A DNA stretch of 64,000 nt from an uncultured Spirochaetota bacterium (GTDB lineage: Bacteria; Spirochaetota; Spirochaetia; SZUA-6; Fen-1364), in NCBI GenBank assembly GCA_963820525.1, contig CAWGAA010000001.1, forward strand, positions 2,016,001 to 2,080,000. The letters are read 5' to 3'. The notes below the pieces were generated by a model. It searched no databases and was not told where the DNA came from. It saw only the letters and a list, made by a program, of their open reading frames with translations. Position 1 is the stretch's first letter. Each line of letters starts with the position of its first letter. Made by a program: the position numbers and the translations under genes. This document shows positions 33,933 to 42,043 of this stretch, in pieces.

Positions 33933-35102
33933 ATGGCTTGGAAGCGCATCCTCATCATTGTGGCTGCGGTGGCAGTGGCGGCGTTTGCCGTCTGGCGAGT
34001 CTTTGTGGCAGTGCGCCCGGCAGGCCCGGTGGTCGGGCAAGCGACGGGTGTTCGCACGGCCGCGCCCGTGGCGGTGGAGATCACACCGGTCACACGCTCA
34101 ACGCTGCAGGACGCCGTGGAGTTCTCCGGAGTCCTGCAGTCCCGTTCCCGATTCGTCGTGTCCACAAAGGTTGCCGGCCGGCTGGAGCGTCTCCTCGTGC
34201 GGATTGGTGAGCGGGTCTCCCGTGGACAGCTCCTGGCCGAGCTGGAGGATGAGGAGTACCGGCAGGAGCTCGAACAGTCCCGTGCGGAGCAGGAGGTGGC
34301 GCAAGCCAACGTGGAAGCGGCGCGGATCAGCGCGGAGGCTTCCGCGCGCGAGCTTGAAAGAGTGCGCGTCCTCCAAGACAAGCAGATCGCCTCCGACACG
34401 GAGCTGGACAGCGCCGAGACTCAGTTGAGCAGAGCGCAGGTCACCCTCACCGTTTCCGAGGCGCAGCTTCGGCAGAAAGAGGTAGCGCTTTCAGCCGCGG
34501 AGCTGCGCGTCCAGCACACGCGGATCACCGCGCTCTGGGAGAACGGCGGCGGCCCGCGGGTGGTGGGAGAGCGTCTGGCGGAGCCGGGAGCGCTGCTTCG
34601 GGCGAACGACCCTGTGGTGTCTCTGCTGGAAACCGATCCGCTGGTGGCCCGGTTGCAGGTGCCCGAAGCGGTCTATCCACGGCTGCGACAGGGCTTGCGG
34701 GCACAGGTGCGCGCGCCGGCAATGCCGGGCCGCGCGTTTGCCGGCAGGCTTTCCACGGTGGCGCCTTTCCTCGATGAACGCACCGGGCAGGCGGAAGCGT
34801 GGGTGGAGATCGCCAACCCGGCAGGTGAGCTTGCCCCCGGGCTTGCCGTGCGCGTGAACCTGGAGTTCGGCCGGCTTGAGAACGTCGTTACTGTTCCCGC
34901 CGTCGCGATTGTCGAGCGCAAGGGGGAGAAAGGCGTGTTCCTTGTGGACCCCCAGAAGCCAATGGCGCGGTTTGTCCCCGTGCGCCCCGGTGCTGCGCAA
35001 GGCGAGCTGGTGCAGATCGTGCAGCCCGAGCTGTCGGGCAGCGTCGTGACCCTGGGCCAGCACCTGTTGGAGGACGGCGGCGCCGTGATACTGCCCAAAT
35101 GA
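33933..35102 (+). CDS. RND efflux periplasmic adaptor subunit
   Basis: N-terminal TM, VRIGERVSRGQLLAEL, hairpin, LAPGL. Confidence 0.9.
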   Translation: MAWKRILIIVAAVAVAAFAVWRVFVAVRPAGPVVGQATGVRTAAPVAVEITPVTRSTLQDAVEFSGVLQSRSRFVVSTKVAGRLERLLVRIGERVSRGQLLAELEDEEYRQELEQSRAEQEVAQANVEAARISAEASARELERVRVLQDKQIASDTELDSAETQLSRAQVTLTVSEAQLRQKEVALSAAELRVQHTRITALWENGGGPRVVGERLAEPGALLRANDPVVSLLETDPLVARLQVPEAVYPRLRQGLRAQVRAPAMPGRAFAGRLSTVAPFLDERTGQAEAWVEIANPAGELAPGLAVRVNLEFGRLENVVTVPAVAIVERKGEKGVFLVDPQKPMARFVPVRPGAAQGELVQIVQPELSGSVVTLGQHLLEDGGAVILPK

Positions 35103-38100
35103 AAATCCCCCTTTTTACTGTCCGTCACCCGGTTCTCACTTCCATGATCGCCCTGATCGTCATCATCCTCGGGGTGATCGCGCTGCGGCAGCTTCCCCTG
35201 GACCTGATGCCCGACATCAGCTTCCCGGTGCTCTCGATCAACACCACCTATACAAATTCGAGCCCCCAAATCGTGGAGCAGCTCATCACCCGGCCCGTCG
35301 AGGAGGCCATGGGCGCCGTGCCCGGGGTGGAGCAGATCACCTCGGAATCCGCGGAGGGCTCGAGCGACGTGCGGATCTTTTTCGCCTGGGGCACCAACCT
35401 CGAGGCCGCGGCCAATGACGTGCGCGACAGGCTGGACCGCGTCATTCCGCGCCTGCCGGAGGACGCGGAGCGGCCGCGCCTTTTCAAGTTCGACCCGTCC
35501 AGCTTCCCCATCATGTTCCTCGGCTTGTACGGCAACGTGGACCCCGTGTACTTGCGCCGGCTCATCGACGAGCAGCTTACCTACCGCCTGGAGCGCATAG
35601 ACGGCGTGGCCTCCGTGGACATCTGGGGCGGGGTTGAGCGGGAAATCCAGGTGAACCTGCTGCCGGACCGCCTCCAGGTGCTGGGCCTCTCCGTGGACCA
35701 GGTGCTGTCCCGCATCAACGCGGCCAACCTGGAAAGTCCCGTGGGCGCCGTCACGGACGGCAGTTTCAGGCGATCTCTGCGCGCATCCGCCCTCTACGAG
35801 AATCTTGACCAGCTGCGCGACACCGTGGTTGCAGTCCGCGACGGGACGCCCATTGCCCTGCGCCAGGTGGCGGAGGTGGTGGACGGAAACGCGGAGGTCA
35901 CGCGCATCGCGCGCATCAATGGCCAGCCCGGCATTCGCATGTCGGTGAGCAAGCAGTCCGGCAGGAACACGGTGGAGGTGGCACGGCTGCTGCGGGCGGA
36001 GGTGGAGCGCATCCGCCAGGATTACCCGCAGATAGGGTTGATCGTGATCAACGACAGCTCCCGCTACATCCAAAATGCGCTCTCCAACGTCGGCACCTCC
36101 GCGTTGTACGGCGCCTTGATCGCGGCGGGGGTCCTCCTGTTCTTCCTTCGCAGCATGCGCAGCACCCTCATCATTTCGATATCCATTCCTTTCTCCATCA
36201 TCGCCACCTTTGTGCTCATGTACGCGAGCGGCTTCACCCTGAACGTCATGAGCCTGGGCGGACTGGCCATGGGCGTGGGCATGATGGTGGACAACTCCAT
36301 CGTGGTGCTTGAAAACAGCTACCGCCTGCGCCAGGCGGGACGACCGGCGGTGGAGGCCGCCGTGGAGGGGGCGGGCGAGGTGACCGCCGCCGTGGTGGCC
36401 AGCACCCTGACCACGCTGGTCGTGTTCCTGCCCCTCGTATTCACGCGGGGAATCTCCGGCATCATGTACAAGCAGCTTGCCATCGTTGTGAGCTTCTCCC
36501 TCATCGCCTCTTTAGTGTCCGCGCTGACTCTTGTGCCCATGATGTCCGCCCGGATGCTTGCCCGCCCGCTGGGTTCCGGCGGGGGCCGAATTGTCCAGAC
36601 GCTCGGCCGGGCCCAAGGCAAGATGGACCGGGTCTATGGATCCTTGCTGGACCGGGCCCTAAGACACCCGGGGGCCACCGTGGTTGCCGTGGCAGCCGGG
36701 CTTGCCGCCAGCCTGACCCTCGTGCCGCTCATCGGCTCTGAGCTCATGCCTGGATCAGACCAGGGGGAGGTGCGCATGAGCGGCGAGCTTGCGGTAGGGA
36801 CCCGCCTCGAGCTGACGGACCAGACCTTCCGCAGCCTGGAGGCGCGCACAAAAGAGGTGGTGCCGGAAGCCCAGACCATGCTTTCAAGCGTGGGCGGAGG
36901 GTTCCACGGATCCGGGAGCAGCACGGGGCAGATCAGCCTGACCCTCGTGCCCCGGAGCCAGAGGAGCCGCTCCGATGCCGAGATTGCGGAGGCCCTTCGC
37001 CGCCGGCTTTCCGGAACGCCGGGGGTGACCGTGCGCACCCGCACGAGCCAGAGCATGTTCATGCCGCGAATGGGCGGCTCTGGAGCAGAGCGCGTCCAGA
37101 TCGAAGTGCGCGGCCAGGACCTGGAGGCGGGCCGGGCCCTTGCCTTCCGGATCCTCGAGATCGTCCAGGAGGTGCCCGGGATCACGGACATTCTGTTCAG
37201 CCAGGAAGCAGGCGCCCCCGAGGATCTGCTGGTGGTGGACCGGCGCCGGGTGGCGGAGCTTGACCTCACGATGCAGCAGGTCACGAGCCTCCTGCGCACG
37301 CTGGTAGGCGGCACTCAGGCCGGCATCTTCCGTGAGGCCGCAAGCGAATCCCCCATCATGGTGCGGCTGGCCGAGCAGGATCCGTTCGACCTCCAGAGCC
37401 TGCTTTCCCTCCCCGTCATCAACGGGCAGGGCCAGGCCGTGCCCCTGAACAACGTTATCAGCGTCCGGCGTCAGATCGGACCCACGGTCATCGAGCGCAC
37501 GGACCAGGAGCGGATGATCACGCTGCTGGCCAACACAAGCGGCCGGGACGTGGGCTCCATTGTCGCTGATGCGCGCCAGAGGCTGCGTTCGCTTCCGGTG
37601 CCATCGGGGCTGTCGGTGCGCTTCAGCGGGGACTGGGAGGAGCAGAACGAGAGCTTCCGGGAGCTTGCCATCAGCATCGCCTTGTCCCTGCTTCTGATTT
37701 ACATGGTCATGGCAGGTCTGTACGAGTCTCTGCGAGACCCGTTCATCATCATGTTCTCCATCCCGCTGACCGCCATCGGAGTGCTTCTCATGCTGTTCCT
37801 GACCCGCACTACCTTCAATATCCAGACCTGGATCGGTGTGCTCATGTTGGGCGGCATCGTGGTGAACAATGCCATCCTGCTCGTGGACACCATGAACCTG
37901 CTTCGCCGGCGCGACGGGATGAAACTGATGGAGGCGGTGAGCGAGGCCGGACGCCGCAGGCTCAGGCCGGTGCTCATGACCTCACTGACGACGATTGTCG
38001 GCCTGCTTCCCCTGGCACTGGGGCTGGGCGAGGGAGGCGAGCTTCAGGCCCCGCTTGCGCGTACCGTGATCGGCGGCCTTGCCAGCGGCACCTTCATCAC

Positions 38101-38173
38101 CCTGCTGTTCATCCCAGCGCTGTACCTGCTCTTCGAGCGGCGGCGCGAGCGCAGAAAGAAAGCGGCAGCATGA
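35099..38173 (+). CDS. RND efflux permease (AcrB/AcrD/AcrF family)
   Basis: 1024 aa, GMMVDNSIVVLEN, GIVVNNAILLVD, RLRPVLMT. Confidence 0.95.
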   Translation: MKIPLFTVRHPVLTSMIALIVIILGVIALRQLPLDLMPDISFPVLSINTTYTNSSPQIVEQLITRPVEEAMGAVPGVEQITSESAEGSSDVRIFFAWGTNLEAAANDVRDRLDRVIPRLPEDAERPRLFKFDPSSFPIMFLGLYGNVDPVYLRRLIDEQLTYRLERIDGVASVDIWGGVEREIQVNLLPDRLQVLGLSVDQVLSRINAANLESPVGAVTDGSFRRSLRASALYENLDQLRDTVVAVRDGTPIALRQVAEVVDGNAEVTRIARINGQPGIRMSVSKQSGRNTVEVARLLRAEVERIRQDYPQIGLIVINDSSRYIQNALSNVGTSALYGALIAAGVLLFFLRSMRSTLIISISIPFSIIATFVLMYASGFTLNVMSLGGLAMGVGMMVDNSIVVLENSYRLRQAGRPAVEAAVEGAGEVTAAVVASTLTTLVVFLPLVFTRGISGIMYKQLAIVVSFSLIASLVSALTLVPMMSARMLARPLGSGGGRIVQTLGRAQGKMDRVYGSLLDRALRHPGATVVAVAAGLAASLTLVPLIGSELMPGSDQGEVRMSGELAVGTRLELTDQTFRSLEARTKEVVPEAQTMLSSVGGGFHGSGSSTGQISLTLVPRSQRSRSDAEIAEALRRRLSGTPGVTVRTRTSQSMFMPRMGGSGAERVQIEVRGQDLEAGRALAFRILEIVQEVPGITDILFSQEAGAPEDLLVVDRRRVAELDLTMQQVTSLLRTLVGGTQAGIFREAASESPIMVRLAEQDPFDLQSLLSLPVINGQGQAVPLNNVISVRRQIGPTVIERTDQERMITLLANTSGRDVGSIVADARQRLRSLPVPSGLSVRFSGDWEEQNESFRELAISIALSLLLIYMVMAGLYESLRDPFIIMFSIPLTAIGVLLMLFLTRTTFNIQTWIGVLMLGGIVVNNAILLVDTMNLLRRRDGMKLMEAVSEAGRRRLRPVLMTSLTTIVGLLPLALGLGEGGELQAPLARTVIGGLASGTFITLLFIPALYLLFERRRERRKKAAA

Positions 38174-39687
38174 GCCGGGCCGTACTTTTGCGCAGAATGC
38201 GGCCCCTGCTGGCTGCAGCTCTCCTCCTGGCCGGCCGCACGCTGCCGGCGCAGGCTCAGGCCTCCGATTCTCCGTCTGCCGGCGCGGTGCAGCCCGCTGA
38301 TTCCTCTTCTGCCGGCGCCATGCAGCCCGCGCCCCGGGAACTCGCGCTGTCCCTCCAGGAAGCGGTGCTTACGGCGCTCGAGCACAACCAGTCGCTTCGG
38401 GTCGAGCGTCTCGGGCCCGAGCTGAAGGCCACGAATCTGAAGGAGGAGGAGGGCGCCCTGGACCCTGTCCTGGCCGCGGATGCCGAGCAGATCGTTGCCG
38501 GCTCCCCGCCCGGCGTCTCGGCGGGCAGCGGCGCCGAGGCCGGCCTTTCCCTGAGCTTCTCCACCGGCACTTCGCTCAGCACCTCCGTGTCCGCCGGCTG
38601 GGGAGACTCGTGGGCGGCGGGAGCGGACCTCGAGGTGACGCAGGCCCTGCTGGCCGGCGGCAACGTGGCAGCCAACCGCGCGCGGGTGGAGCAGGCCCGC
38701 CTGGATCTCTTCTCCTCAAGGTACGAGCTTCGCGGCTTTGCGGAGTCTCTGGCTGCCGACGTGGAGTCCGCCTACTGGGGCCACTACCTCGCCCTTCGCC
38801 AGCGCGACATCTACCAGGAGTCCCTGGGACTGGCCGAGCGCCAGCTTGAGGAAGCCCAGGTCCGAATGCAGGTGGGGCGGATCGCGGCAATCGAGCTTGC
38901 AGCCCCGCGGGCGGAGGTCACCTCCCGCCGGGAGGCCCTGCGGCAAGGTGAAAAGAACGTGCAGTCCACCCGGCAGCAGCTGCTCATGCTGGTGAACCCG
39001 GCAGACACCGGCTTGGACTCCCCACTGCGGCTGGTGGACACGCCGGCACCGCCGACAGGCGCGCTGGGCGATGCCTCCGCGCACGTGTCTCTGGGCCTCC
39101 GCCAGAGGCCGGATCTCGCGCAGGCCCGGCTTGCCCTGCAGCGCGGCGAGCTTGAGGTCGTGCGCACCCAGGCAGGGCTCCTGCCCCGACTGGATCTTTT
39201 CGTGCGGCTGGGCGGCACGGGCTACGCCTCCTCTTTCGGCGGTTCTGTGGTCGGTATTGCCGATGAGCCGTATGCCAGCGCCGGCCTGAGCTTTTTGATG
39301 CCGCTGGGAAACCGCGCGGCCGAGGCGCGCGCCGAACGGGCCCGGCTGACCAAGGCGCAGGCCGATGAAGCCCTGAAGGGGATGGAGCGCAGCGTGGAGG
39401 CGGACATCAGAAACGCCTGGCGGGAGGCTGAGTTCTCCGCCGGGGGGATCGCGGCCAGCGCCGAGCTTCGCGGCCTGCAACAGGAGAAGCTTGCCGCGGA
39501 AGTGGAGAAATTCAGAAACGGCACCTCTACGACCTACCTGGTTGCCCAGGCCCAGCGGGACCTGCTGGCAGCCCAGCTGGGCGAGGCTCAGGCCACGGTG
39601 CAGTACCTCCTGGCGATGGTGACGCTCTACCGGCTTGAAGGCTCGCTTCTCGAGCGCAGGGGAATTGCCGCGGAACGGGTGGAATAG
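38170..39687 (+). CDS. TolC family outer membrane protein
   Basis: Signal peptide, LSLQEAVLTALEHN, LLPRLDL, follows the RND permease. Confidence 0.9.
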   Translation: MSRAVLLRRMRPLLAAALLLAGRTLPAQAQASDSPSAGAVQPADSSSAGAMQPAPRELALSLQEAVLTALEHNQSLRVERLGPELKATNLKEEEGALDPVLAADAEQIVAGSPPGVSAGSGAEAGLSLSFSTGTSLSTSVSAGWGDSWAAGADLEVTQALLAGGNVAANRARVEQARLDLFSSRYELRGFAESLAADVESAYWGHYLALRQRDIYQESLGLAERQLEEAQVRMQVGRIAAIELAAPRAEVTSRREALRQGEKNVQSTRQQLLMLVNPADTGLDSPLRLVDTPAPPTGALGDASAHVSLGLRQRPDLAQARLALQRGELEVVRTQAGLLPRLDLFVRLGGTGYASSFGGSVVGIADEPYASAGLSFLMPLGNRAAEARAERARLTKAQADEALKGMERSVEADIRNAWREAEFSAGGIAASAELRGLQQEKLAAEVEKFRNGTSTTYLVAQAQRDLLAAQLGEAQATVQYLLAMVTLYRLEGSLLERRGIAAERVE

Positions 39688-39688
39688 C

Positions 39689-39955
39689 TCAAAACCCTAG
39701 CCGTCCTGCTTTTTTCAAAGCCAACAAAGCATAGAGAGTCATCCACTTATTGGCGGCTCCACGATCGCCAACTTTCCACAGACACTGGGTTGGTGCCCAT
39801 TCCAGAATGAATCTTCCTTCTCTATCAGGAGCCTAGAAGCTTCCATGCACGATCAAGCCTTGGCTCATTCCCATATCCCATTCTGCTTAAATGGTACAGG
39901 ACTTCCACCAGGCCAGCCCGCCAGTGGAACGGAAATATCATTGTCTGAACGTCCT
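39689..39955 (-). pseudogene. 3' fragment of the IS110-interrupted gene, with an additional frameshift near 39828
   Basis: DVQTMIFPFHWRAGLVEVLYHLSRMGYGNEPRLDRAWKLLGS, then another frame DREGRFILEW...NKWMTLYALLALKKAGRLGF*; joins in frame with 41354-42043 when the IS is removed. Confidence 0.85.
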
Positions 39956-39968
39956 ACTATGATGCCCG

Positions 39969-41066
39969 TCAAGCAGGAATCTTCGATTCCTCCTCCGTCC
40001 CACGAATCCTCACCCAGTCTTTGAGTTTGCGCTGGTACAGTTGCTCCTCCTTCCATCGATACGGCGTGTTCGACAGCAGCATCCTGCGCATCATGCCAAA
40101 GGTCTTTCGCAAGACCGCAATTCGCGCTCGACCGTACCCTTTGCGTTGGACAAGCTCCCGGAAGAACTCTCCCAACAGCGGCGATGAATCCGCCAAGTGG
40201 AGCACAGCCTCGGTGAACAACGTGCGCGCCAGGCACCGACTGCGCCGATTCAGTCGACCCACGTGCGTGGTGCCTCCGCTGGAGCGCACAGTCGGCACCA
40301 CCCCCAGGTAAGCCAACAAAGCCCGCAGGCAGCGAAATCGGCGGATATCTCCGACCTCCGACAGAAACCCCAGCGCCAAGAGCGGAGTCACCCCGCGGAT
40401 CCCGATGAGCACCAGCACTTGCTGTTCGAAGGGCTTTCCCGCGCGGTAGATCTCCCGCTGCAGACTCTTCTTCTGCTCTTTAAGCTGGGCAAGAATCCCA
40501 AGGCTCATCGTGATGCTGAACAGACTGGCCGGGGAAAGCTCAAGGGCGGCAATCAGCTGCAGCCCCACCGTGGGATTGTCCACTATCCGGACGCCGAGCT
40601 TACGGTCAGTGATGCCATTCTCGACCAGCACGCTCTGCGCCTGCGCCTTCAATTGGCGGCTCTGATTGTTGAGAATCTGCCAGTGGGAGAACAGCCGCCG
40701 CAACTCCCGCACCTCAGGGGTCGGCTGCCAGACCTCGGGCAGCACCAGCTCCCCACTTTGAGCCGCTGTCCACAGCCCCAGCGACAGTGCCCCCGCATCA
40801 TGGCGATCCGTCTTGTGCCAAGAGTCGCGGATGATGCGAAACCGATACGGGTCGATGACGACGCAGCGAGCTCCTCGGCGCTGAATCCGCTCCGCCCACC
40901 AGAAGCTCCCAGAGCAGCTCTCCAACGCCACCGAGTCCTGCGGCCCAAGGGTCGCTACATAGCCGGCGGTCTCCACCCTGGCCAGATAGCGCACCTCATG
41001 GCCAGCCTCGTCGCGAATCGACACGGCGGCACTGCCTTTGTGTAGGTCAAGCCCGTGATACCTCAT
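39969..41066 (-). CDS. IS110 family transposase/recombinase (DEDD RuvC-like plus Tnp domain)
   Basis: GLDLH, ALE, KTDRHDA (DEDD); EVGDIRRF, AYLGVVPTVRSSGG (catalytic Ser); RBS GGGAGG. Confidence 0.95.
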   Translation of the reverse strand: MRYHGLDLHKGSAAVSIRDEAGHEVRYLARVETAGYVATLGPQDSVALESCSGSFWWAERIQRRGARCVVIDPYRFRIIRDSWHKTDRHDAGALSLGLWTAAQSGELVLPEVWQPTPEVRELRRLFSHWQILNNQSRQLKAQAQSVLVENGITDRKLGVRIVDNPTVGLQLIAALELSPASLFSITMSLGILAQLKEQKKSLQREIYRAGKPFEQQVLVLIGIRGVTPLLALGFLSEVGDIRRFRCLRALLAYLGVVPTVRSSGGTTHVGRLNRRSRCLARTLFTEAVLHLADSSPLLGEFFRELVQRKGYGRARIAVLRKTFGMMRRMLLSNTPYRWKEEQLYQRKLKDWVRIRGTEEESKIPA

Positions 41067-41074
41067 CAGTCCTC

Positions 41075-41337
41075 CCTTCGGCTCGGATCTCCACAGCGGA
41101 GGAGGAGACTCCCGTGAAGGCACTGATGGCTCCACTCTACTATCCAGCATCGCCTCTGGCGTGCTATGTTGGTGGTGCGAAACGGCGGTAGGTGGCCGGC
41201 CAAACTTGTTATCGTGGTCGTCGTTGACGCCACAGGACGTTGACGGCCATCTACCGCGCTCCTTTCCCCGCTCGGTACCGAGTTGTCACGCAGTATACAG
41301 CCACCCACCACCTCGTCCATCAAAGCCTTCTCGGCCG
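41075..41337 (-). ncRNA. Putative bridge RNA (seekRNA) of the IS110 element; ends approximate
   Basis: ~280-bp non-coding end with two stem/internal-loop hairpins whose loops match the target site (AACGTCCT, AACAAG) and the donor junction (ATAGTAG, CAAC). Confidence 0.8.
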
Positions 41338-41353
41338 ACGTGCATCATATCAA

Positions 41354-42043
41354 CTTGTTTACCAACTTCCGTGGATCCCTGCGTTTATAGATTCCTCCTC
41401 GATCAAGGAAGTATTCAATGAGACTGCGGCAGCTTTGATGCTTCCAGCACGTAGGCCCTATCTCGGCAAACGCTGCAAGCGCCTTGAATGATCCACGTAT
41501 GCAGCTCTTCGTCTTGTTTGGTTGGGCCTTGGGTTCATGCATTTCACAGAGATATCCACCATCGGCCCTTACTGATTTTTCAAGAAGTTCGATGCTGCGC
41601 TGCAGACGCGGGTCTTTTCGATAGCCCAGCATAATGAAGGTTCGGATGTTGTACCCGTACAGACAGGAGAAGTGCTTGTACCAGTCACCATCTTCTTGTT
41701 GGAGACCAAGATATCGCTCCGCGGCGAGCTCTACCTTTGGGTGCGTTCTATCAAGGCCAAGCTCCGCGAGATAGGCCAGGCAGAAGTGGGTTGTGGCAAA
41801 GCTGCCGTACTCCGCGCCGTCTCCGACCGTCTTCTGTGTCCTTGGATTCGTCTGCAGCCAATACCCTTTTGGATGCATTCTTTCGAATAGCCGAATCACC
41901 GCCGCCGATTGAGCGAGTTTTTGACGCGCTGCAATTACTTCTGGATTATTGGCAGGCACATCTGATAGTTCCGTCAGCGTCCGATATCTAGCGGAAGGAT
42001 CTGAGGGATCGAGAAGCCAAGTCAGTATCGGATTAGCTTTCAT
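41354..42043 (-). pseudogene. 5' part of an alpha-barrel (prenyltransferase/squalene cyclase-like) hypothetical gene interrupted by IS110
   Basis: WLLDPSDPSARYRTLTEL, QEDGDW, ADGGYLC; frame ends 3 codons inside the IS. Confidence 0.8.

Follow-up and report, generated by a model that had tools for sequence, protein, structure and literature searches.

We propose, with a probability of roughly 0.88, that positions 41353..39954 on the minus strand of the window (the whole 64,000-nt stretch of DNA that was analysed) are an IS110-family element whose non-coding left end (LE) encodes a bispecific guide RNA of the bridge RNA or seekRNA kind. According to the same explanation, the preferred target of the lineage would be an integron attC-like repeat, and the window copy would sit at a look-alike site inside a gene. 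Our analysis established the anatomy and exact ends of the element, the covariation between guides and DNA, the covariation of the helices and the conservation of the promoter-like sequences. Because the loops change with flanks, ends, core and handshakes, and because the helices that bound them show compensatory changes, we regard LE as a probable bridge/seek RNA gene.

The insertion sequence measures 1400 bp including one copy of its core dinucleotide, which reads AG on the sense strand and CT on the plus strand; related elements are 1387–1425 bp long. Because a wetland metagenome contig (X4, record 24) carries the empty site, the ends could be fixed at 41353..39954. This contig represents an uninserted allele that spans 39600–39955 and then continues into the sequence left of the element, with 9 differences and 5 gaps relative to the window over 356 nt. 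On the plus strand it reads GAACGTC-CT-TGTTTACCAAC, and the empty target GAACGTC-CT-TGTTT, which had been reconstructed in a first, sequence-only reading of this DNA, has thereby been seen in nature. LE comprises 287 nt (41067..41353, minus strand) and has homologs in 58 aligned relatives, and the right end (RE) is 15 bp long. The sub-terminal inverted repeats, CATCATA on the right (39958..39964, minus strand) and TATGATG on the left (41343..41349, minus strand, from the reading of the junction), lie 2 and 4 nt away from the core, respectively; the right repeat is followed by GT and then by the core AG (39955-39954).

The interrupted host gene is divided into a 5′ part (41354..42043, minus strand), which ends ..GTAAACA-AG at the left junction and matches SQHop_cyclase_C weakly, at 20.3 bits and below the cut-off, and a 3′ part of 43 codons (39825..39953, minus strand), which is in frame with the 5′ part once the insertion sequence is removed. 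The element is a single copy, with no second DNA copy in the 5.05-Mb host genome, and near-identical copies occur in at least 14 metagenome studies. No circle-junction joint was found among the contigs of the four DNA runs that were compared with the locus. These contigs show a single joint, which links 41000 with 41098 (one contig, side 22) and does not allow an interpretation. Among the sequencing runs in which the element sequence was found, none is an RNA run.

The transposase gene (39969..41066, minus strand) is intact, encodes 365 aa and is preceded by a Shine-Dalgarno sequence, GGGAGGA, at 41076-41070. Its product matches NCBIfam NF033542, ‘IS110 family RNA-guided transposase’, with 186.4 bits (cut-off 140) over positions 2–342 of 343, Pfam Transposase_20 with 55.5 bits and DEDD_Tnp_IS110 with 17.5 bits, the latter under its cut-off of 29. 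D7, E49, D87, D90 and S263 are invariant in the five clade members compared, and the G--P----SG motif is consistent with the description in the text of Siddiquee et al. 2024 (PMC11187229). The assignment as a predicted IS110-family RNA-guided transposase in which the DEDD-type and Ser-Gly positions are kept is therefore supported. A PDB search with the window protein alone gave no match; a profile of the five clade members matched the IS621 and ISCro4 transposases (E 1.8e-7 and 2.7e-7, respectively), and its alignment covers the C-terminal domain only, the clade protein being distant from the IS621 transposase.

Relatives were collected from a scan of species genomes (2 loci), from a search of the phylum in which 11 of 401 genomes matched at E ≤ 1e-40 (host included) and from a metagenome scan, of which the best 80 of 114 were kept. 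Conserved blocks upstream of the transposase are present in most relatives, and about 60 relatives, with 27–92% aa identity, have the same LE RNA. Several members are visibly decayed: the ORFs of L003 and L024 are broken, L002 carries a 32-nt duplication, and the LEs of L045, L070 and L016 are truncated. The 43%-identical paralogue L005 contains a TGA stop and has no RNA match.

In its short form, the guide RNA would extend from about 41290 to about 41130 and would present, in this order, a 5′ stem-loop, a target-binding internal loop and a donor-binding internal loop. As the sequence-only reading had described, a 14-bp stem with one A.C mismatch (5′ strand GCGGTAGATGGCCG, 41257-41244; 3′ strand CGGCCACCTACCGC, 41198-41185) encloses the target-loop strands AACGTCCT (41241-41234) and AACAAG (41210-41205). 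We set the register of this loop from invariant RNA blocks, taking the 12 nt preceding GUGGC as the 5′ guide and dividing the 11 nt after CCAC into a 2-nt spacer and 5 flank, 2 core and 2 handshake positions. In the window, the 5′ guide CAACGTCCT (41234..41242, minus strand) is complementary to the sense-strand core AG and the right flank GACGTT over 8 contiguous positions. The 3′ guide GATAACAAGTT (41203..41213, minus strand) consists of the 2-nt spacer, five left-flank nucleotides, four of which are identical to the left flank, the core AG and the handshake TT, which equals the first two LE bases. Between the two guides lies the inner hairpin GTGGCGTC..GACGACCAC (41214..41233, minus strand), whose GTGGC/GCCAC is the same in 58 of 58 sequences. 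The target-loop matches within the window alone are unlikely by chance: when the 287-nt LE was shuffled 20000 times at the mononucleotide level, 74 shuffles contained an anchored 8-mer that complements core plus right flank, 1075 contained an anchored 6-mer identical to left flank plus core, and 3 contained both.

We then compared guides and flanks across the relatives. Identity between the left flank and the 3′ guide was 0.80–0.90 at the five positions (49 unique left junctions of 59), compared to 0.29–0.42 for mismatched guide/left-flank pairs. For positions 1–8 of the right flank and the reverse-complemented 5′ guide, identity was 0.48–0.72 (40 unique right junctions of 44), compared to 0.25–0.49 for mismatched pairs. 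The clearest case is L002 (75% aa identity), with the guides CUGUCAAUCU and CACCAAG and the flanks AG-ATTGACAG and CCACCAAG, respectively, and guide/flank matches of 9–11 nt were found for L024, L057 and L098. Right-side matches are poor for L036, L061 and L068, among others, and the motif-based search for ends gave an unlikely RE at a few loci. Because related sequences are not independent of each other, the covariation statistics given here and below overstate the support.

The second hairpin that had been described (41175-41132), with the outer stem CCAC/GTGG, the inner stem AGCA-CGCC and the loop strands CAAC and ATAGTAG, is present as well. Its 5′ guide, ACCAAC (41168..41173, minus strand), pairs with the core G and with LE positions 1–3 and 5 and has a C.A mismatch at LE position 4. 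The 3′ guide (41135..41143, minus strand) is ATAGTAG, which equals the RE end plus the core, followed by AG at the handshake position. The sequence-only reading had matched these strands to the circle junction over 7 and 4 nt. The 7 nt of ATAGTAG stand, and a 7-mer identical to RE end plus core was found in 223 of the 20000 shuffles; the other side has to be revised to 5 nt plus one core position with one mismatch to its own LE, and the 4-nt CAAC match is insignificant taken alone.

Across 29 unique guide/LE combinations with 9 LE starts, LE positions 1–5 pair with the five bases that precede the terminal position of the donor 5′ strand at frequencies, wobble included, of 0.93, 0.97, 0.97, 0.83 and 0.97, compared to 0.93, 0.81, 0.78, 0.49 and 0.94 for mismatched pairs. 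The donor 5′ guide is thus 5 nt long plus one core position. Close kin switch both partners, LE TTGAT occurring with AUCAA and LE TTGGT with ACCAA. On the other side, the donor 3′ strand equals the RE end plus the core in the forms AUAGUAG, AUAGUGG and AUAGUAU. In 49 of 51 rows, one and the same core (GG, AG or AT) ends the left flank, occurs in the 3′ strands of both the target loop and the donor loop, and stands at the RE end. In 46 of 51, the two bases that open LE recur as the target-loop handshake, and the donor-loop handshake equals the first two bases of the right flank in 18 of 36 unique cases, compared to a fraction of 0.039 for mismatched pairs; in the window copy, the donor handshake AG differs from the right flank GA. 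A comparison of loops and flanking targets in other copies, which had been suggested together with the first reading, was therefore positive for both loops. The internal loops that contain the guide segments are flanked by helices in which compensatory changes occur.

These observations suggest the following mechanism. The 5′ strand of the target loop, CAACGUCCU, would pair with the sense strand of the target over the core AG and the right flank. The 3′ strand, ..UAACA-AG-UU, corresponds to left flank, core and the first two LE bases; because it is identical to the sense strand, it would pair with the antisense strand and carry the handshake dinucleotide. The donor loop would read the joined ends of the excised circle, with ACCAAC pairing with the core G and the start of LE, and with AUAGU-AG being identical to the RE end plus the core. 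The transposase, which combines a RuvC-like DEDD domain with a Ser-containing Tnp domain, would together with the RNA exchange strands at the common dinucleotide. We infer that the RNA is made, is bound by the protein and directs recombination, and that the window copy is probably still active.

The folds were evaluated in an LE alignment of 58 distinct sequences out of 61, with L013, L024 and L068 left out for their long insertions. In the fold that contains the 14-bp target-loop stem (fold A), this stem has 87.3% / 79.9% of cells paired, and in 12 of its 14 pairs both partners have changed. For fold A as a whole, 84.3% of cells are paired and the covariation is 0.270, compared to 0.152 for shuffled alignments and at most 0.067 for slid partners. 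The inner hairpin of the donor loop, AGCACGCC-AGA-GGCGATGCT (41146..41165, minus strand), is 82% paired, and both partners vary in 6 of 6 pairs. The outer donor stem CCAC/GUGG shows little covariation (73.7% paired), and the apical hairpin of the 5′ stem-loop, CTCGG-TA-CCGAG (41271..41282, minus strand), is weakly supported by the alignment (46–72% paired). Because the inner target hairpin GUGGC/GCCAC never varies across the alignment, it is uninformative either way.

A second fold (fold B) is preferred by RNAalifold and by the minimum-energy fold of the whole LE. Here, the segment just 5′ of a conserved TATAC box, GGTGGTGGGTGGCTG (41298..41312, minus strand), replaces the 5′ strand of the target-loop stem and pairs with its 3′ strand (41198-41185), forming helix P1. 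In addition, TATACUGCG pairs with CGCGGUAGA, a 4-bp helix closes the loop, and the TATAC box itself is also one strand of helix P2. In the three helices of fold B, beginning with P1, 95.6, 91.1 and 90.5% of cells are paired and double changes occur in 6 of 8, 6 of 8 and 4 of 4 pairs, respectively; the covariation is 0.311, compared to 0.169 for shuffled alignments and at most 0.077 for slid partners. Folding of the region had been recommended with the first reading, and the outcome is divided: the 14-bp stem covaries, and the minimum-energy fold of the whole LE uses the 41312-41298 partner instead. Column 97, for example, pairs with column 46 (AU 32, GC 11, CG 8) and also with column 200 (UA 27, CG 14, GC 7). 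Because single columns covary with two partners, neither fold is a by-product of the other, and the 5′ half of the predicted LE RNA has two mutually exclusive folds that both covary. For the window sequence, a transcript from about 41336 is calculated to favour fold B (−89.5 versus −83.8 kcal/mol), and only fold A is possible for a transcript from about 41286.

Promoter-like sequences are present at two places. A −35 box, TTGACG (39967..39972, minus strand), is located in RE and overlaps the stop codon of the transposase gene, and a −10 box, TATGAT (41349-41344, minus strand), is formed by the first six bases of the left inverted repeat. Excision would rebuild a putative TTGACG-17-TATGAT promoter across the joined ends. 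TTGACN together with TATGAT or TATGTT was found at 32 of 36 unique junctions, with a 17-nt spacer in 25. Inside LE, the sigma-70-like TGGACG-16-TATACT (41292..41319, minus strand) is the sole match in 39900-41450, where 0.4 were expected, and in 32 of 53 unique relatives at least 4 of 6 positions of the −35 hexamer are found 16–18 nt from a TAT.CT box. An ‘extended −10’ reading of CTGTATACT was rejected, since its TG adjoins the hexamer instead of lying one base away.

We also built a covariance model from 41 of the 58 sequences, after setting aside 17 in which the donor hairpin is of a second type or an insertion is present. Tested on 53 held-out loci, the model recovered the RNA at 41, and each of these matches precedes the transposase gene on the same strand. 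It missed 12, namely distant paralogues (L005–L008, L010 and L019), loci whose upstream DNA is too short (L014, L085 and L094) and truncated LEs (L016, L045 and L070). The model also matches L017, L023 and L025, which are three copies of a 27%-identical element with the same guide order, and ISLin1, with 33.6 bits, upstream of its transposase. ISKpn2 has a weak match downstream of the gene (16.7 bits, E 0.0026), which we note as a lead only. A scan of 39800-41500 with Rfam 15 at E up to 10 gave three matches at chance level (E 2.6–6.3), none of them in 41120-41350.

Among the relatives kept, the five closest kin (87–92% aa identity) share the guides of the window copy, and four of the five are inserted in unrelated loci at ..ATAACAAG-TCGTTG(A/C)AG... 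The right flank TCGTTG(A/C)AG has to be shifted by 1 nt to match the 5′ guide. Because these attC-like sites match at such an offset, the contiguous-pairing rule does not cover all natural sites; a contiguous-type flank, GACGTTGGGG, is present on one further metagenome contig. A shifted core (GT) for the attC-type sites was considered and rejected, the window site sharing AG alone. The 17-nt kin site has 4 exact matches in the host genome, 13 matches at 16/17 and 37 at 15/17. With a stricter attC-like motif, 44 sites were found on one strand of contig C1 between 685,264 and 816,979, spaced by a median of 1203 bp. An integron integrase gene is located at C1:682,092-683,030 (TIGR02249, 410.7 bits, cut-off 265). 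Because the array starts 2 kb from this gene, the repeats are best read as attC-like sites of a large chromosomal integron.

All of the at least 44 attC-like repeats in the host are empty. When sites are scored by the contiguous rule, the window site reaches 12/14; among 10.09 million positions, no site scores 13–14 and 13 sites score 12, and the insertion site in the gene is thus tied for the best contiguous match in the genome. The proposal of an intact RNA-guided recombinase with its natural specificity visible is accordingly borne out for the protein, which has an intact ORF and belongs to NF033542, and has to be modified for the specificity, since the closest kin target the attC-like repeat and not the interrupted gene.

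The sequence-only reading had assumed an ordinary IS621-type bridge RNA, with the left-target guide first, a CT core and the strand logic of IS621. The core does read CT on the plus strand, where the 5′ guide repeats GAACGTC-CT and the 3′ guide complements CT-TGTT, and the order of modules and the guide lengths agree with the IS621 design template as published. However, this CT is antisense to both the RNA and the transposase. In the published text on IS621, the RNA is in sense and each 5′ loop strand repeats the left half of the sense strand. By contrast, the core of our element is AG in the sense strand, and its 5′ strands complement the right halves of that strand, as do those of all relatives examined; this is the IS1111-type order. 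The sub-terminal inverted repeats of 7–10 bp and the longer terminal extension on the LE side also argue against an IS621 layout, which we therefore consider very unlikely. It is more improbable still that LE serves solely as a leader that regulates the transposase mRNA, with a structure controlling translation or stability and with matches to flanks and ends that are incidental or left over from insertion. LE does form the 5′ leader of the transposase, a downstream CCUCC stretch could mask the Shine-Dalgarno sequence, and there are two alternative folds; yet the guide segments vary among relatives and track both flanks, the ends and the core, they lie in loops between invariant or covarying helices, and the protein belongs to an RNA-guided family.

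A different concern is the state of the window copy. Several observations weigh against our main reading: the lack of a matching Rfam 15 family, the mismatch of the donor guide, the donor handshake AG versus GA, the 1-nt offset at the kin sites, the lone copy despite at least 44 free sites, and the low covariation of the outer donor stem. The RNA gene could be genuine and this copy a crippled or inactive fossil, disabled by the mismatch between donor guide and LE and left behind at an off-consensus site. In favour of this is the C.A mismatch at LE position 4, given that the guide is AUCAA or GUCAA in kin that share this LE and that ACCAA occurs in kin whose LE is TTGGT; the single copy next to unoccupied attC-like sites and the visible decay of several relatives point in the same direction. 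On the other hand, the ORF is unbroken and keeps every conserved position, the RNA, the two promoter-like elements and the two ends are intact, a single guide mismatch at a distal position may be tolerated, and near-identical copies are spread over the metagenome studies mentioned above. We consider an inactive copy less likely than not, and retain the bispecific guide RNA as the preferred reading.

Bridge/seek RNAs are a known class that is used for genome engineering, and another natural example would be unsurprising alone. A bolder reading, which we put forward as doubtful, is that the clade represents an as yet undescribed third RNA-guided IS110/IS1111 layout in which an RNA with IS1111 logic is located in the 5′ leader, and that this leader switches between two states according to the promoter used. 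RNA made from the circle-junction promoter would carry the extra segment and fold into a form with a three-way junction, and transcripts from the internal promoter would fold into an IS621-like form. If true, such a switch could let the element tell its excised from its integrated state and gate insertion versus excision. The 5′ half shows four-way covariation, which suggests that two conformations linked to the two promoters have been selected, and a two-conformation regulatory layer for bridge/seek RNAs was not found reported in the literature searched. Independently of the switch, the element may offer a compact natural system that is aimed at integron attC sites, in a host genome with dozens of empty sites.

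For the comparison with IS621, its orientation was taken from the text and supplement of Durrant 2024 (PMC11208160) and not from IS621 DNA. According to this text and a 2026 Nature paper, RE lies 5′ of the CT core, LE comes next and the RNA is in sense; the Nature paper gives the left half as LT-RD. The 5′ loop strands (LLLLLLLCC and lllllllc) are identical to the sense-strand left halves and the 3′ strands (RRRRRCCHH and rr..rrrcchh) complementary to the right halves, and mismatches in the donor guide are poorly tolerated (PMC11208160). As described for the IS621 bridge RNA in the text of PMC11208160 and in Hiraizumi et al. 2024, our candidate RNA is encoded by a long LE that precedes the recombinase gene, and RE is short. 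Also shared with these descriptions are the order of 5′ stem-loop, target loop and donor loop, the guide layout of 7+2 / 5+2+2 / n+1 with 2-nt handshakes, the single core base in the donor 5′ guide with a core common to all four guides, and a promoter re-formed across the RE-LE junction, here as sequence.

Unlike in the published IS621 scheme, the 5′ strand of each loop pairs with the right half of the sense strand, a reversal seen in the window and in all relatives examined, and the sense-strand core is AG (in kin also GG, AT or CG) instead of CT. The two layouts coincide only when the DNA is turned round, with CT antisense and the longer donor arm in LE. Compared to the reported values for IS621, the sub-terminal repeats are longer (7–10 bp versus 2–3), the donor 5′ guide has just 5+1 nt, and LE is about 95 nt longer, the extra segment containing the alternative fold and the internal promoter-like box. 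Three motifs of the clade were not found in the readable supplementary sequences of Durrant 2024 (PMC11208160).

The IS1111-family seekRNAs of ISEc11, ISPa11, ISKpn4 and ISPst6 have the top-strand complement 5′ of the bottom-strand match, and this family has sub-terminal repeats, a longer left extension and an RNA downstream of the transposase, as stated in the text of Siddiquee et al. 2024 (PMC11187229). With these seekRNAs, as described there, our clade shares the guide order, the sub-terminal inverted repeats, the asymmetric extensions that are longer on the left, and the junction promoter. In addition, the attC-like site of the kin, ..ATAACAAG-TCGTTGAAGCCG, comes close to the reverse complement of the ISKpn4 target in the table of a 2026 review, and so do the repeats of the host array. 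Unlike the published IS1111 elements, the clade has its RNA upstream of the transposase in all 41 model matches, and RE in the window measures 15 bp. The repeats have 7 bp in the window and 9–10 bp in kin compared to 11–13 bp in the IS1111 description, and the extensions in the window are 4 nt on the left (6 with the core) and 2 nt on the right compared to 7/3.

The text of PMC11187229 names a few exceptions to the downstream RNA, e.g. ISMtsp17, without analysing them; judged from this mention alone, this IS1111 relative combines IS1111-like features with an upstream non-coding region, as our clade does. ISLin1 of Leptospira interrogans (PGAP name, plasmid NZ_CP039286.1) is a distant relative with 26.8% aa identity over 96% of the protein, and the homologous RNA is located at 501-634, just upstream of its transposase gene. 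The combination of an IS1111-logic guide with an upstream RNA was not found described in a non-exhaustive search of the text of published articles. In the text of PMC11187229, and again in the 2026 review, RNA position and guide order form a dichotomy between IS110 and IS1111: an upstream RNA has the bottom-strand match first, and a downstream RNA the top-strand match first. Because our clade, with members at 27–92% aa identity and ISLin1 joined by RNA homology, breaks this link, RNA position and strand logic appear to be separable, which bears on the origin of the two groups from each other. Because its guide order is reversed and its RNA lies upstream, we file the clade as carrying a candidate IS110-family bridge/seek RNA with the strand logic of IS1111 and the position of IS621.

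The host genome contig (C1) carries a large chromosomal integron at 682,092-816,979, outside the window, where at least 44 attC-like repeats, all on the same strand, come after the gene for an integron integrase (TIGR02249, 410.7 bits). The repeats share the motif ATAACA[AT]G TCGYTG[AC]AG..., span approximately 130 kb with a median spacing of 1.2 kb, and are the target favoured by the closest kin of the window element, an IS110-family insertion sequence. None of the at least 44 repeats in this array was occupied. A further gene for an integron integrase (448.6 bits) was identified at C1:1,954,228-1,955,157, approximately 61 kb ahead of the window start, and two distant IS110-family genes (L006 and L007; 26% amino acid identity) lie 5-10 kb past it.

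The window element itself interrupts a host gene on the minus strand (window positions 39825-39953 and 41354-42043), the uninterrupted allele of which is carried by a wetland metagenome contig. The protein encoded by this gene weakly resembles the C-terminal repeats of squalene-hopene cyclase, with a score of 20.3 bits that is under the cut-off. Directly adjoining the element are two ORFs on the plus strand (35099-39687); judged from the ORF list only, one encodes a 1024-aa RND-type transporter and the other, of 505 aa, looks like an outer-membrane factor.

Decay was evident at several loci with relatives of the window transposase. A 32-nt tandem duplication close to the 3′ end of the transposase gene shifts the frame in L002 (2200-2320), the ORFs are broken in L003 (1201-1470) and L024, and the left end is mostly gone in L045, L070 and L016, with the result that the guide RNA is lost as well. 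Within the host, a transposase paralogue (L005; C1:1,654,900-1,655,931; 43% amino acid identity) contains an in-frame TGA, has the right end CATCATAGTGG and was not matched by the RNA model; this copy probably represents a 5′-truncated remnant.

For the 5′ half of the RNA, an alternative to the IS621-like fold is a three-way junction, in which window positions 41298-41312 pair with 41185-41198 and 41289-41297 pair with 41250-41258. The two folds are mutually exclusive, and compensatory changes are present in both. Inside the donor loop, the inner hairpin occurs as two unrelated sequence types, AUAGCACG..CGAUGCUG versus AUGUGUGCC..GGGACCACG (columns 226-272 of the left-end alignment; noted for 17 among the 58 aligned relatives, L063, L075 and L097 included), and the flanking guides keep their register in both types.

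In ISKpn2 from a Klebsiella plasmid, the RNA model gave a weak match (16.7 bits; L110:1762-1881) downstream of the transposase gene, and this match shares the block GCAC..GAUGC.G.AUAG, a hint that elements with a downstream RNA have the donor-loop module in common with the window element's relatives.
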